Shown one piece after another: positions 23,074 through 29,458 of a stretch of 64,000 bases of DNA. Position numbers and translations under genes: made by a program. Under the pieces are notes generated by a model. The model worked only from the letters and a program-made list of their open reading frames with translations. It was not told where the DNA came from and made no database searches. Origin of the DNA: an uncultured Candidatus Peribacteria bacterium (GTDB lineage Bacteria > Patescibacteriota > Gracilibacteria > Peribacterales > Peribacteraceae). Where the stretch lies: contig CAZSMX010000006.1 in NCBI GenBank assembly GCA_964608325.1, forward strand, positions 1,426 to 65,425. Reading direction: 5' to 3'. Within the stretch, counting starts at the first letter, position 1, and each line of letters begins with the position of its first letter.

Positions 23074-24720
23074 TTGCTCGGCTATCATATCCCTGTGCTC
23101 CGCCGTGCGTTACGTCGTCTACCGGCTTCCGTTTGGCTTCTGATAGGCCTGGTATGCATCTTGTACCTTCCGTCCCTGTCGTACGGGTTCGTGAGTTGGG
23201 ACGACGAACTGCTGGTAACGCGTAATCCTCTACTACGCCTGCCGTTTTTCGCCATGGTCGGGAAGGCCTTCACATCCTACGACCCGGAGCTCTACGCGCC
23301 CCTCACGACGCTTTCCTTCGGCTTGCAGTACAAGGTGTTTGGCCTTTGGGCGCCTGCCTACCACGCATTCAATCTCCTGCTGCACCTTGGCAATGCCGTC
23401 TTTGTGTTTCTCATCCTGGGCCGCCTGACGGGCAAGCAGAAGGTTGCATTCGCCTGCGCGCTTCTCTGGGCCATCCATCCGTTGAACGTGGAGGCGGTTA
23501 CATGGATCAGCGCCAGGAAGGATCTCTTGGCCTCCTGTTTCGCTCTGGCTTCCATTCTGGCCTATCTCCATGACCGGAAGGGGTGGAGCGCCGTGCTGTA
23601 TGTCTTGGGCCTTCTCAGCAAGGTTTCCATCGTGCCGTTGCCCTTCGCTCTCTTGCTTCTCGATTGGCATCGCGGACGGGACCTCAAACGTTCCCTGAAG
23701 GATCAAGGGCCGTTATTCCTCGTCGCGGCGGTCTTCGTCTTCATCGCATTCATGGGAAAGACGCGCGGCATCGCGGCGTTGTCGTTCGGCGATACGTTCC
23801 TGCTCGCAATCCAAAGCACGTGGTTCTACCTGTGGAAACTGATCGCCCCCGTGTCGCTGTCCATCCTCTATCCGCCGTCGGCATCGCATGCGCCGGTCAT
23901 TCTGTCTGCCATCGCGAGCGTCGCCGCATGCGCGCTCATCGCCTGGGCGCTCCGAAAGAAGATGCCCGCCATTCCCTTTGCGGCCGGGTGGTACGTATGT
24001 TTCCTGCTTCCAAGCTTCGCGTCGTTCGTCCGTGCCGGCAGGGTCTCCGTCGCGGTGGATCACTATGCGTATCTCGCGATTCTCGCACCCCTCGCACTGA
24101 TCACCTTGTTCATCGACCGTTTGGCGACAAATCGAAGAACCTATGGCGCCGCCATCGCGTGCCTGTCTCTCGCGTTGGCCTACGGGTCGTACCTGCGCAT
24201 GACCGAGTGGCGGAGCAGCGAAGCCCTCTATGCCTCGGCTATCCGTCTGTCCCCGCAGGAAGCGGTCCTCCACTACAACCTGGGCGTAGAGTATTCCGTG
24301 CAGAGCCGCTGGGACGAGGCGATCGGTTCGTATCGCAGCGCCATCGCGGCTGATCCGGCGTACGACAGTGCCATGAGCAACCTGGCCATACTCCTGTCGG
24401 CCCGGGGGGAAACCGAAGAGGCGCGAGCGCTATTGGAGAAGGCTATCGCACTCAATCCGAAAAACGCGAACGCATACAACAACAGGGGGTCGATGCTGTT
24501 GGATGAGGGGAATGTCGAAGCGGCGATCCGGGATTTCCAAACGGCCATACGGCTCGATGAAACCAATGTCAAAGCCCATCGCAACCTTGGCGCTGCCTAC
24601 GGGAAAAAGGGGATGTACCGCGAAGGTCTCCTGGAGTTCAAGCGGGCGTTGGAACTGGATCCTAATGCCGACCCGGAAGAGATACGCAAAATCGAGAGAG
24701 CTCTAGATCAAGCCAATTAA
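23074..24720 (+). CDS. multi-pass membrane protein with C-terminal TPR repeats (PMT/TMTC-like glycosyltransferase family candidate)
   Basis: About 9-10 hydrophobic segments, then TPR repeats (YNLGVEY..W.EAI..Y..AI..DP; NAYNNRGSMLLDEGNVEAAI). Start codon uncertain (TTG). Confidence 0.7.
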   Translation: MLGYHIPVLRRALRRLPASVWLLIGLVCILYLPSLSYGFVSWDDELLVTRNPLLRLPFFAMVGKAFTSYDPELYAPLTTLSFGLQYKVFGLWAPAYHAFNLLLHLGNAVFVFLILGRLTGKQKVAFACALLWAIHPLNVEAVTWISARKDLLASCFALASILAYLHDRKGWSAVLYVLGLLSKVSIVPLPFALLLLDWHRGRDLKRSLKDQGPLFLVAAVFVFIAFMGKTRGIAALSFGDTFLLAIQSTWFYLWKLIAPVSLSILYPPSASHAPVILSAIASVAACALIAWALRKKMPAIPFAAGWYVCFLLPSFASFVRAGRVSVAVDHYAYLAILAPLALITLFIDRLATNRRTYGAAIACLSLALAYGSYLRMTEWRSSEALYASAIRLSPQEAVLHYNLGVEYSVQSRWDEAIGSYRSAIAADPAYDSAMSNLAILLSARGETEEARALLEKAIALNPKNANAYNNRGSMLLDEGNVEAAIRDFQTAIRLDETNVKAHRNLGAAYGKKGMYREGLLEFKRALELDPNADPEEIRKIERALDQAN

Positions 24721-28174: not shown

Positions 28175-28945
28175 ATGTCAGCAATCAGTCTTTCGAAATT
28201 GGCACAGGAAAAACGTGCATCCATTGTGCGGATCGTGTGCATGCGCGGTAAAAAAATCGCCATGACCGGCACTGGTTTTTTTATTGATGACTCCTATGTT
28301 CTGACATGCGCGCATGTCTTGCTTTGCAATGCGAATATAGCTTCTCTTCTAGGGGCAGGAGATAAATTAACTAAAGAATCCACATCTTTGGAACAGAAAT
28401 TAAAGACGCACTTTCTAAAATCAAAAATCACCGTTTTTGTGGAAACTGAGAAAGGAAAGAGAATGAAGGCAAAGTCAGTGTTATTCAATGGTTCAATGGA
28501 TGTTGGTTTGGTTTCCATTCAAAGTCGCGGCGTTCCCGTTGAAGTGAAAATGCGTCCGACAAAAATAGGGGAAACGATAATGTCCCTCGGTTTTCCTTAC
28601 GCAATACAAACTGCAGACGATAAGTTCCCTTTTTCGGCGGTGCAGGGGAATGTCATGTCTCAACCGAAGGTTCAAATCGGGGGCTACTTGCGTCGATCAT
28701 TCACACAAATTTATTGTCCTTCGATGGGTGGTGCTTCCGGATCCCCGGTTTTTGATGAGCAGGGCTTTGTTATTGGCATCCTAAATGGCCAGATGAGATG
28801 GGGGGATGACAATTTTTTGTTTAGAGATGAAGACGCAAAAGATTCATCTAAAATAATAAAGGATGCGTTTCATGTGCCACTTCCCTATGGTTTCATTACC
28901 CCCCTTCAGAAAATTTGGCCCAAAGTCGAGAGTCTGAAGTCATAA
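28175..28945 (+). CDS. trypsin-like (S1/Trypsin_2) serine protease without signal peptide
   Basis: Catalytic triad contexts LTCAHV, MDVGLVSI and MGGASGSPVF. TATAAT at 28162-28167 lies just upstream of the ATG. Low-GC gene. Confidence 0.8.
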   Translation: MSAISLSKLAQEKRASIVRIVCMRGKKIAMTGTGFFIDDSYVLTCAHVLLCNANIASLLGAGDKLTKESTSLEQKLKTHFLKSKITVFVETEKGKRMKAKSVLFNGSMDVGLVSIQSRGVPVEVKMRPTKIGETIMSLGFPYAIQTADDKFPFSAVQGNVMSQPKVQIGGYLRRSFTQIYCPSMGGASGSPVFDEQGFVIGILNGQMRWGDDNFLFRDEDAKDSSKIIKDAFHVPLPYGFITPLQKIWPKVESLKS

Positions 28946-28958
28946 TAATTTTTTTTAG

Positions 28959-29083
28959 TGGAGCCGACGACCGGATTTGAACCGGTGATCCGCCTTAGGC
29001 GGATTTACGATACCTATGAGCTGCGCTTTGGTTATTTCAGAACGTCTTTGCAAGCAAAGACGTAGCAACTGAGCTACGTCGGC
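28959..29083 (-). tRNA. tRNA-Thr(CGU)-like unit 1: D-loop insertion plus altered anticodon-stem/variable region (possible pseudogene or novel tRNA-like RNA)
   Basis: Same acceptor, T arm, CCA and ATCGTAA loop as the canonical copy. 47 nt replace the 6-nt D-loop segment, and ACCTAGGGTC is replaced by the hairpin ATCCGCCTAAGGCGGATC. Confidence 0.5.
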
Positions 29084-29101
29084 TTACTAAGTGGTGAGTG
29101 A

Positions 29102-29218
29102 TGGAGCCGACGACCGGATTTGAACCGGTGACCCTAGGTTTACGATACCTATGAGCTGCGCTTTGGTTATTTTAGAACGTCTTTGCAAGCAAAGACGTAG
29201 CAACTGAGCTACGTCGGC
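29102..29218 (-). tRNA. tRNA-Thr(CGU)-like unit 2 with net 41-nt D-loop insertion (possible pseudogene or novel tRNA-like RNA)
   Basis: Identical to the canonical copy except that GTAGAG is replaced by CTACGTCTTTGCTTGCAAAGACGTTCTAAAATAACCAAAGCGCAGCT. Confidence 0.5.
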
Positions 29219-29235
29219 TTTTGAGTGGTGAGTGA

Positions 29236-29311
29236 TGGAGCCGACGACCGGATTTGAACCGGTGACCCTAGGTTTACGATACCTATGCTCTACCAACTGA
29301 GCTACGTCGGC
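29236..29311 (-). tRNA. tRNA-Thr (anticodon CGU), CCA encoded
   Basis: GCCGACGTAGCTCAGTTGGTAGAGCATAGGTATCGTAAACCTAGGGTCACCGGTTCAAATCCGGTCGTCGGCTCCA folds as a 76-nt cloverleaf. Confidence 0.95.
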
Positions 29312-29458
29312 GTATTTGGTGCGCTGGTGCAAAAGGAGAATCCGTTCCGTTCCCTTTGGGAACCGAAGGGAGCCCTATTGTGGGTGTTTTGCCGTTGCGG
29401 GGCAAGGTTTTTTCAGATGCTTCGGCCCCTTTGTCCATGGGTCCCATACAATGGCTTT

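Follow-up and report, generated by a model that had tools for sequence, protein, structure and literature searches.

Partial copies of a tRNA gene standing beside the intact gene are the classic mark of integrase att sites, where it is usually the 3' part of the tRNA that is used. Genes for free-standing GIY-YIG homing endonucleases also adjoin tRNA genes, as SegB does in the tRNA cluster of phage T4. The Rickettsia palindromic elements, the GC clusters of fungal mitochondria and the double-hairpin elements are small mobile elements made of GC-rich palindromes. Group I introns of bacterial tRNA genes lie in the anticodon loop, measure about 200-300 nt and have a P1-P9 core. The tRNA-linked repeats (TLRs) of E. 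coli (Egan and Landy 1978, Rudd 1999) are short non-coding units behind tRNA or rRNA genes, often in tandem. What they repeat is confined to the last 18-19 bp of the gene, and for most of them no function is known; three of them, in rRNA operons, give small RNAs that bind Hfq and CsrA (PMC8144298).

The window, a stretch of 64,000 nt from the genome of a Peribacteria bacterium (G000, 90% complete), carries on its minus strand a tandem array that can be set beside these systems. Unit 3 (29236..29311) is a canonical tRNA-Thr(CGU) of 76 nt, a working gene that ARAGORN calls as the only tRNA-Thr(CGU) of the genome, that has the cloverleaf as its minimum-free-energy fold and that scores 70.6 bits with the Rfam tRNA model (RF00005, gathering score 29). 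A 17-nt spacer (TCACTCACCACTCAAAA, 29219..29235) leads from this gene to unit 2 (29102..29218, 117 nt), a spare tRNA-Thr copy in which nt 19-24 (GTAGAG) are swapped for a 47-nt module. An 18-nt spacer (TCACTCACCACTTAGTAA, 29084..29101) leads on to unit 1 (28959..29083, 125 nt), which differs from unit 2 by a single A>G substitution in the module's linker and by a second hairpin in the anticodon-stem/variable region. This second plug, ATCCGCCTAAGGCGGATC (28987..29004, again on the minus strand), is a perfect 7-bp hairpin, unique in the genome; it takes the place of ACCTAGGGTC and removes the 3' strand of the anticodon stem. Comparable extra insertions occur in the Asp and Ile units of the same genome. 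An earlier sequence-only reading had described this layout, from the canonical 76-nt gene and the replacement of GTAGAG in unit 2 to the single substitution and second hairpin of unit 1, and had reported a sequence common to the spacers. String tests returned true for both units, the ARAGORN call and the Rfam score agree for unit 3, and both spacers contain AGTGGTGAGTGA (plus strand). When the tRNA finder and the covariance model were run on the spare units, ARAGORN called neither as a plain tRNA, and the Rfam scores were 40.9 bits for unit 2 and 29.7 bits for unit 1. The tRNA-derived parts of both are identical to the unit 3 gene; acceptor stem, T arm and CCA are intact, as is the anticodon arm of unit 2. 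The 3' strand of the D stem, GAGC, is replaced in both units, and the D stem (10-13 with 22-25) therefore cannot form. The region 28959-29235 is free of ORFs.

Like TLRs, the units stand directly behind a tRNA gene, in the same transcription unit, and repeat the mature gene end exactly, both closing with the full 3' part of tRNA-Thr including CCA; the likeness is one of layout only. Unlike TLRs, they repeat nt 1-18 and nt 25-76 (the leader form described below repeats nt 1-18 alone), have the 3' half of the D arm exchanged for a conserved two-hairpin module, belong to a different taxon (Peribacteria, candidate phyla radiation) and have no apparent sequence relation to the E. coli repeats.

In unit 2, tRNA nt 4-11 form a terminator-like hairpin with GCTACGTC, followed by TTTGCTT (29194..29215, minus strand, like the next three features). 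A second hairpin, H1, composed of ACGTCTTTGC, TT and GCAAAGACGT (29177..29198), aligns to the paired columns of the covariance model R1 introduced below and overlaps the first by ACGTC; the terminator scan called both hairpins terminator-like. An A-rich linker follows (TCTAAAATAACCAA, 29163..29176), corresponding to an A/purine-rich block conserved in all modules, and then a mini hairpin, H2 (AGC-GCA-GCT, 29154..29162), which is joined directly to tRNA nt 25-26. Counterparts of H2 in the same genome read GAGC-GCA-GCTC (His) and GAGC-CGCA-GCTC (Phe); those of other genomes are TGCGCGCAGCGC and similar. The two mutually exclusive helices proposed in the sequence-only reading both exist: the isolated 5' part has the helix GACGTAGC/GCTACGTC as its minimum-free-energy fold, and the helix ACGTCTTTGC/GCAAAGACGT wins once the acceptor stem forms. 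The same reading correctly stated that removal of the insertion restores no D stem, since GCTC...GCTC would be left; the 3' side reads GCTC and not GAGC because GCTC is the 3' arm of H2.

These helices, the intact acceptor stem, T arm and CCA (with the anticodon arm of unit 2) and scores that still pass the Rfam tRNA threshold are what would speak for units 1 and 2 as functional genes, either tRNAs that lose the D-loop insertion by splicing or tRNA-like RNAs whose 5' domain can switch. Archaeal bulge-helix-bulge introns at non-canonical tRNA positions are similar in that they, too, add tens of nt to the D-arm region. Unlike the setting of those introns, this is a bacterium with tmRNA, the intact gene is always adjacent and no splicing endonuclease was found: the EndA profile (PF01974) had no match in the 90% complete genome, its archaeal controls being positive. 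An archaeal origin of the window was discarded, as tmRNA is present and the relatives carry the name Candidatus Peribacteria. The insertion shows no demonstrated bulge-helix-bulge motif. A group I intron was rejected as well, the insertion being 47 nt long and in the D arm and the Rfam intron models having no match in the window. The archaeal-type intron reading finds no support, given the adjacent cognate gene, 17 nt upstream here and likewise present for every other such unit examined, the failure to find an endonuclease gene and an excision product, GCTC...GCTC, that has no D stem. The proposed switchable tRNA-like class is made improbable by degenerate acceptor strands in the homologous units of most relatives, gain and loss between congeneric genomes and, in unit 1, a hairpin that destroys the anticodon stem; in addition, the first helix runs into a T-run and reads as a terminator. 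With no D stem, no anticodon stem in unit 1 and falling Rfam scores, the units would be without tRNA function, and we regard functional genes of either kind as hardly probable at all.

At this locus the 47-nt segment represents a family of modules that is specific to this Peribacteria family. R1 was built from 10 modules from other loci and genomes, with the units of the window left out. It scores 47.1 bits on unit 2 (29153-29218) and 47.0 bits on unit 1 (29018-29083), with E about 4e-9 genome-wide, and the array is thus not a chance match. R1 matches 63 of the 101 genomes of the family, with more than 180 matches and up to 15 copies per genome, and has no match in a sample of 148 other genomes of the phylum; the carriers have genomes of 1.1-1.4 Mb with up to 15 module loci each. 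A strict sequence pattern found matches in 13 of 64 family genomes and, among about 337 other genomes of the class, few matches, which included ordinary tRNA-Lys genes and tRNA-less sites. The module follows one order: the first ~18 nt of a tRNA, the GC hairpin H1, an A-rich linker and the small GC hairpin H2. The tRNA fragment comprises nt 1-17/18 and ends in the D loop (TAGCTCAGYTG), units 1 and 2 sharing nt 1-18; the junction between fragment and hairpin is identical in 46 distinct modules, and H1, of 8-10 bp, begins directly after it. Behind the linker comes a 3' box, either GCTCGGTC or H2; units 1 and 2 have H2, and the exact GCTCGGTC box is absent from both. Loops and linker show no sequence conservation beyond composition among the modules. 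Full-text literature searches and the Peribacter genome paper mention nothing that resembles these modules.

Recent tandem duplication of tRNA-Thr and nothing more, followed by decay through random mutation and template switching and with no relation to anything elsewhere, would account for tRNA-derived parts identical to the gene and for the variable copy number expected of tandem repeats, and template switching could perfect quasi-palindromes like ACCTAGGGT. It would not account for an insertion that scores 47 bits with a model made from other loci and genomes, for like architecture at six tRNA loci of this genome and in some 20 other genomes, or for an H1 that differs from its counterparts in the sister species G002 and at tRNA-Trp by compensatory pairs. 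We therefore consider plain decay very improbable. The earlier suggestion of decaying duplicates had the direction right, and missed that a conserved, structured module family stands beside many tRNA genes.

The modules occur in two layouts. In type U the module lies in the 5' leader, the distance from module start to tRNA start is fixed at 88-99 nt and only nt 1-18 are repeated. A promoter -10 box lies upstream of the module, which should therefore be co-transcribed with the tRNA. In type D, the layout of units 1 and 2, a second tRNA copy has the module where the 3' half of its D arm would be; this copy repeats nt 1-18 and nt 25-76 and lies 9-23 nt behind the intact cognate gene. Type D units are found behind the intact cognate tRNAs for Thr, Asp, Phe, Ile, His and Pro in the window's genome (six loci) and in about 20 other genomes; every one that was examined directly follows such a gene. 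The strict junction GCAGCTC plus T loop is confined to the window's genome, and a broader pattern was used for type D units elsewhere. In most relatives the acceptor 5' strand of type D units is degenerate; units 1 and 2, unlike many of these, have it intact. Where the repeated 5' fragment was compared with its tRNA, it matched nt 1-17/18 perfectly in 20 of 21 cases; the two leaders, by contrast, were unrelated. Two ideas on the 3' part of the module were discarded: a sigma-70 promoter within it (the A-rich block as UP element, GCTCGGTC as -35), since most modules have no -10 at the right distance, and pairing of the invariant GCTCGGTC box, or of the sequence flanking it, with the 5' strand of the acceptor stem, which was inconsistent across tRNAs by eye and in folds.

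Plain MAFFT alignment misplaced the hairpin in a set of 21 modules, so that RNAalifold predicted no structure; the modules were accordingly aligned from a seed alignment with supplied structure and then realigned to the model. In the resulting H1 alignment 92.6% of cells are paired, and double compensatory changes occur in 8 of 8 pairs. The covariation score is 0.584, compared with 0.135 for shuffles (none of 500 reach 0.584); slid controls do not exceed 0.13. Among the non-canonical cells, 6 are G.U, 0 A.C and 25 tandem G.A. H1 of unit 2 itself shows compensatory changes relative both to the G002 module and to the tRNA-Trp module of its own genome.

Such covariation would be expected if the module were a selected cis-acting RNA element of the pre-tRNA (5' leader in type U, 3' trailer in type D) that guides processing, stabilises, terminates or yields a small RNA, with the tRNA-derived parts as handles for processing enzymes. 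G.U and tandem G.A on the sense strand only, loops of RNA-stable types (CUUG, GNA/GNRA), the constant 88-99 nt between module and tRNA with a -10 box upstream, the 5' fragments identical to tRNA nt 1-17/18 (20 of 21, the two leaders being unrelated) and the survival of the hairpin and T-run in decayed remnants all fit such an element, and the three E. coli TLRs of rRNA operons that give small RNAs offer a precedent (PMC8144298). Its patchy distribution does not fit: 63 of 101 genomes, differing tRNAs and gain or loss between congeners. Nor do loops and linker conserved in composition only, degenerate type D acceptor strands and the further disruptive plugs that accumulate in units. A selected element is thus a possibility that we take seriously and still find doubtful. 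As a separate observation, the covarying hairpin, the stable loops (CUUG, GNA), the sense-strand G.U and the fixed spacing, which also fit a selected RNA element, count against reading the units as mere spare copies.

Two sister species of the same genus, G001 and G002, allowed gain and loss to be followed. The tRNA-Trp module is present in the window's genome and absent from both sisters, and a type U module at tRNA-Thr is found in G002 and in neither of the other two. Upstream of tRNA-Thr, G000 and G002 differ in a segment with a GGAAC repeat at its boundaries, and a deletion may account for this difference. In G001 a spacer homologous to TCACTCACCACTCAAAA stands before a unit remnant. The nt 4-11-type hairpin is kept, with a cleaner T-run, behind tRNA-Thr in G002 and G001 and behind tRNA-Asp, and the hairpin with its T-run is the only part left in the decayed remnants at Thr (G001 and G002) and Asp (G002). 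A pair of empty and filled sites with clean target duplication was sought and none was found, and the genome holds no dispersed copies of the window's hairpins or plugs, whose uniqueness means that there is no sign of recent intragenomic transposition. The missing site pair and the missing sign of recent transposition, together with the intact acceptor 5' strand of units 1 and 2, also run against the spare-copy reading. The comparison of orthologous units for selection yielded little: the Pro-GGG locus is about 99.6% identical including its flanks, and the Asp unit has 4 changes over 132 nt, all of them outside the hairpins, a number too small for a decision.

The array itself varies in nature. 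A repeat period of 135 nt (29004..29138) is missing from a 390-nt contig of X4, an independent DNA run (metagenome) from another study; the contig spans the locus with one unit fewer and joins 29003 to 29139, with an ambiguity of 34 nt at the joint. This independent contig across the locus makes an assembly artefact an unlikely source of the array; that there are exactly two copies depends on the assembly, as contigs of the probable source run break inside the repeat. The contigs of two metatranscriptome runs cover only 28300-28631 of the window, outside the array.

A direct repeat of part of a tRNA beside the intact gene, at a locus prone to foreign insertion, is what the units share with integrase attL and attR sites, and the sequence-only reading had offered att-site scars of repeated integration at tRNA-Thr as one of its explanations. 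In its fuller form, the units would be attL/attR-type scars of repeated integration and excision by a tyrosine integrase, and the module a remnant of an attP arm (integrase-less and cis-mobilisable). Besides the classic association of partial copies with att sites, G001 lends this some support, as a 2.4-kb island with foreign-looking cargo lies at the 3' end of its tRNA-Thr and is bounded by a short copy of the tRNA end. The tyrosine recombinase profile PF00589 has a single match in the window's genome (C5:60058-60588), probably the chromosomal Xer type, and no tyrosine recombinase was found in the G001 island, so that neither offers an integrase gene besides Xer. The units further differ from attL and attR in their fixed size of ~50 nt, with a two-hairpin architecture and spacing maintained at more than 180 loci (up to 15 per genome) that random deletion remnants would not show; in type U repeats that take the 5' end, exactly from +1 to the D loop, where integrases usually use the 3' part, type D units holding nt 25-76 besides nt 1-18; and in H1 arms that covary rather than keep a protein-binding sequence. 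Insertion was the right direction, and an integrase origin is unsupported; we judge it improbable.

A second kind of insertion occupies the same niche. Of 61 family genomes, 51 have small GIY-YIG genes, and at 21 of 30 loci a co-oriented tRNA lies no more than 300 nt away. In the window's genome three of four such genes abut tRNAs, and a module, a plugged spare copy or a GIY-YIG cassette accompanies at least 14 of its ~43 tRNA genes. In G001, and only there, a GIY-YIG gene (PF01541) lies at the position homologous to the window's units, 13 nt after tRNA-Thr(CGU) and between the tRNA and the unit remnant. Similar to SegB-type genes, the family genes abut co-oriented tRNAs and are flanked by partial copies of that tRNA; these copies carry GC-palindrome plugs in the D loop, T loop or anticodon arm. 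Unlike SegB-type cassettes, the window's units are gene-less, with no GIY-YIG ORF, and the family proteins are bare catalytic domains of 78-106 aa in which a DNA-binding domain is absent; examples are encoded at L028:4172-4405 and at C5:39936-40142 of the window's genome. Homology of the module to the cassette plugs was considered and dropped, as R1 had no match on them, and the link as it stands appears to be one of shared niche and theme.

A bolder proposal builds on this niche, namely that the modules make up a new class of parasites that exploit tRNA genes and have no genes of their own. Each lineage would carry a copy of the first 18 nt of its target tRNA and would spread between strains at that locus by homing-like events or recombination, possibly with the tRNA-linked mini GIY-YIG nucleases acting in trans, and parts of it would have been domesticated as pre-tRNA leaders and terminators. 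We offer this proposal tentatively and think it rather unlikely to hold in full.

The explanation that we favour, with confidence slightly above even, takes units 1 and 2 for spare copies of tRNA-Thr(CGU) that are plugged with hairpins and non-functional, and not for intron-bearing tRNAs; they would have been produced by insertion at tRNA genes and unequal crossing-over, with a co-opted terminator. As the module sits beside many tRNA genes of the family, the array would be a footprint of tRNA-gene parasitism or duplication rather than of an intron. Under the spare-copy explanation, modules would come from a process of insertion or duplication that targets tRNA genes, in a selfish-DNA niche common to the GIY-YIG cassettes, and the hairpins would keep the spare copy from folding, or recombining, as a tRNA. 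Unequal crossing-over between the canonical gene and unit 1 could have produced unit 2, and would explain its unit-1-like 5' half and canonical 3' half. In this genus the hairpin of nt 4-11 with its complement and the T-run would terminate transcription of tRNA-Thr; this first hairpin was probably co-opted as the tRNA-Thr terminator, in which case the units would be transcribed weakly at most.

Little of the DNA in any cell is as conserved as its tRNA genes, which are therefore ideal landing sites for selfish DNA. If the spare-copy explanation is true, a structured module that contains no gene accompanies up to a third of the tRNA genes in an entire family of ultra-small bacteria, which are probably symbionts, and one may ask how streamlined genomes tolerate, and perhaps reuse as terminators and leaders, parasitic insertions in essential RNA genes. 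There are practical consequences for annotation, since the units pass the Rfam tRNA threshold and would be labelled pseudo-tRNAs or intron-bearing tRNAs, and for assembly, as several contigs of the window's genome end at such repeats. The loci also provide a concrete substrate for probing the role of very small stand-alone GIY-YIG proteins.

The palindromic elements named at the outset resemble the modules as gene-less hairpin insertions tolerated inside structural RNA or protein genes. The modules differ in that their copies are not near-identical, are linked to tRNA genes and include a stretch that matches the target tRNA. In one relative (G435, L091) the D loop holds a perfect 24-nt palindrome by itself, with a 4-nt repeat on its flanks.

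On the minus strand of the window, ARAGORN identified a canonical 76-nt tRNA-Thr(CGU) gene at 29311-29236 (70.6 bits with the Rfam tRNA model), followed by two insertion-bearing copies of it. String tests showed that in unit 2 (29218-29102, minus strand) GTAGAG of the tRNA is swapped for 47 nt, and that unit 1 (29083-28959, minus strand) differs from unit 2 by a single A>G change and by having ATCCGCCTAAGGCGGATC, a perfect hairpin, in place of ACCTAGGGTC. The spacers between the units, 17 and 18 nt long, have AGTGGTGAGTGA in common (plus strand). The sequence-only reading had described the units, the insertion, the substitution and the spacers exactly so, and its third unit is indeed the canonical gene. 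The insertion-bearing units score 40.9 bits (unit 2) and 29.7 bits (unit 1) with the Rfam tRNA model, and no other Rfam family matched in the window. The count of exactly two such units depends on the assembly. In an independent DNA run, a contig fuses 29003 to 29139 and so has a single insertion-bearing unit, not two. In unit 2 the 5' half is that of unit 1 and the 3' half that of the canonical gene, as unequal crossing-over between these two would yield, and it may have arisen in this way.

The insertion of the window is a member of a family of modules, each made of nucleotides 1-17/18 of a tRNA, a GC hairpin (H1), an A-rich linker and a small hairpin (H2). In the sister species G002, the stretch upstream of tRNA-Thr(CGU) opens with the 18 nt of the tRNA that the units also carry. 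Its hairpin differs from that of the window by compensatory pairs (CGCCATTGC/GCAATGGCG vs ACGTCTTTGC/GCAAAGACG), the kind of change for which a comparison of relatives had been proposed, and is followed by an A-rich run with AACCAA common to both. The same arrangement was found in other genera. A strict pattern matched 13 of 64 genomes of this Peribacteria family and a looser one 53 of 121; among ~337 other genomes of the class the strict pattern gave few matches, including ordinary tRNA-Lys genes and loci without a tRNA nearby. A covariance model (R1; 64 positions, 8 pairs) was built from ten modules, excluding the window. Its scores were 47.1 bits for unit 2 and 47.0 bits for unit 1. It matched 63 of 101 family genomes (E <= 1e-4, up to 15 matches per genome) and had no match in a sample of 148 genomes from elsewhere in the phylum; the family counts here and for the patterns rest on genome samples. 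Over 46 distinct R1 matches, H1 is paired in 92.6% of cells, with double compensatory changes in all eight pairs. Its covariation score was 0.584 vs 0.135 for shuffles (0 of 500 reached 0.584) and no more than 0.13 for slid controls, in an alignment fitted to the structure and therefore biased in its favour. The non-canonical cells comprise 6 G.U, no A.C and 25 tandem G.A, so the structured strand is the tRNA-sense one.

Modules occur in two layouts. In the first (type U), the module lies in the 5' leader of a complete tRNA, in the order promoter -10 box, short leader, tRNA nucleotides 1-17/18, H1, A-rich linker, GCTCGGTC or a small GC hairpin, ~33 nt and the tRNA. Of 20 measured loci, 19 have the tRNA starting 88-99 nt after the start of the module, the exception (L078) being a tandem module pair that contains a run of N. 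The repeat shared by module and tRNA has its first base at exactly +1 and shows no mismatch in 20 of 21 cases, and the leaders of the two are mostly unrelated to each other. Type U modules are often in tandem, with a period of ~97 nt, and accompany tRNAs for Thr (three isoacceptors), Lys, Trp, Val, Ala, Pro, Phe, Met and Arg. In the window's genome (G000), a variant (C9:82-190) lies upstream of tRNA-Arg-CCU, a tRNA whose D box, GTAGTTCAACAGAT, is non-standard. The 5' fragment of the variant matches this tRNA, and it also has hairpins, an A-rich linker and GGCTCCCTT plus GTTCTTTC. Modules therefore extend beyond TAGCTCAG-type tRNAs.

In the second layout (type D), to which the window array belongs, the module replaces the 3' half of the D arm in a spare tRNA copy 9-23 nt behind the intact gene. 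In G000 it was found at Thr-CGU (two units), Phe, Ile-GAU, His, Pro-GGG and Asp, the last with at least two units in an array reaching the contig end. Type D units also occur in about 20 further genomes of the family, at Trp, Thr, His, Met, Arg and Asp; there the acceptor 5' strand is often degenerate, and TAGCTCAGYTGG and nucleotides 26-76 are retained. H2, a small GC hairpin, has a loop of the GNA or GNRA type; in G000 its sequence is GAGC-GCA-GCTC in His, GAGC-CGCA-GCTC in Phe and AGC-GCA-GCT in Thr. Its presence accounts for the earlier remark that the 3' side of the Thr units reads GCTC, not GAGC. In its simplest form (L091) the D loop holds just a 24-nt palindrome with CTGG repeats on either side. 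A spliced intron is not supported: an intact cognate gene adjoins every interrupted unit examined, and no splicing endonuclease gene was found in the ~90% complete G000.

Within the genus, modules have been gained or lost. G000 has a tRNA-Trp module that its two sister species G001 and G002 lack, and among the three only G002 has a type U module at tRNA-Thr. Upstream of that gene, G000 and G002 (window 29312-29380 vs L029 4446-4552) differ by a clean ~95-nt indel with a GGAAC direct repeat at its bounds, which fits either a slippage deletion or an insertion with a 5-nt duplication. Behind tRNA-Thr, G001 and G002 retain just the hairpin (GCC)GACGTAGCTCRGTTGCTACGT and a T-run, and a decayed second Asp unit of G002 retains a hairpin and T-run of like kind. 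This retention, together with a terminator scan that calls the tRNA-Thr trailer hairpin in both window units, suggests that the hairpin and T-run are the terminator of the tRNA transcription unit. Another hairpin with a T-run, TTGCCGTTGCGGGGCAA (window 29385-29408, plus strand), is conserved in all three species between tRNA-Thr and the start of dprA; it looks like a plus-strand terminator, its position upstream of dprA being odd.

From the patchiness of the modules and their context we infer a probable origin by insertion, as against a selected RNA function. The scar of an integrase is unlikely, just one tyrosine recombinase gene having been found in G000. No dispersed copies of the window's hairpins were found in that genome. 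The nearest published concept that we found is that of the E. coli tRNA-linked repeats; each of the 22 units closes with 18-19 bp of the gene upstream, and most have no known function (PMC8144298). We rate the module as akin to such repeats or to footprints of tRNA-targeting elements. Nothing on it was found in the Peribacter genome paper or in full-text literature searches.

Stand-alone GIY-YIG genes also sit beside tRNAs. Three of the four in G000 (C5:39936-40142, C1:6037-6252, C21:3983-4177 and C2:107551-107763) adjoin tRNA-Pro(UGG), tRNA-Pro(CGG) and tRNA-Lys(CUU), and each has a partial copy of the adjoining tRNA on its other side. Near the fourth, at a distance of ~300 nt, is an orphan tRNA-5'-like hairpin (C2:107186). 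Such genes occur in 51 of 61 family genomes, in up to nine copies. A tRNA, always co-oriented, stands within 300 nt at 21 of 30 loci, where the chance expectation is an estimated ~2-3% per locus. The cassettes run either from a plugged partial tRNA through the ORF to a complete tRNA or in the reverse order, and the partial tRNAs carry GC palindromes in the D loop, T loop or anticodon arm. R1 did not match these plugs. Module and cassette are linked by a common niche and design, which does not imply homology. In G001, a 78-aa GIY-YIG gene (PF01541, 49.8 bits) begins 13 nt past tRNA-Thr(CGU) and leads a 2.4-kb island that stops just short of the spacer and unit remnant. The islet (L028 4172-6522, G001:C10) also encodes a GNAT acetyltransferase (PF13523), a class I methyltransferase and a secreted-looking 133-aa protein with no Pfam match.

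The bacterial genome G000 (1.07 Mb, 62 contigs, 56.7% G+C, ~90% complete) carries tmRNA and 42 plain tRNA genes, with one tRNA-Thr gene each for CGU, GGU and UGU. It also encodes tRNA-Ile with anticodon UAU (C10:21567-21643). In its intron mode ARAGORN called a candidate tRNA-Arg(GCG) with a 509-nt intervening sequence (C2:99507-100107), which may be a false call or a group I intron. Several contigs end at or inside tRNA genes or module arrays (C7:45158, C24:1-79, C9:1-81, C3:78008-78097, C48:2932); tRNA and module repeats probably break the assembly, and module counts are therefore lower bounds.

A second conserved element of ~100 nt with two hairpins, AAGTCGTRCCGAACGAGCGC..GCGCGAAGT..GGCACTCC..GAAAAGAGAGCCCWTGAGAGAAAA.CC..TCTCATG, is unrelated to the two-hairpin module. 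It lies beside the tRNA genes Leu-UAA, Gly-UCC and Trp, and beside Thr-CGU in G001 (L028 3950-4082). In G000 it occurs at C1 ~24600-24707, at C2 ~89976-90085 and, inverted, immediately downstream of tRNA-Trp (L059, contig C7); in L035 it lies upstream of the module.
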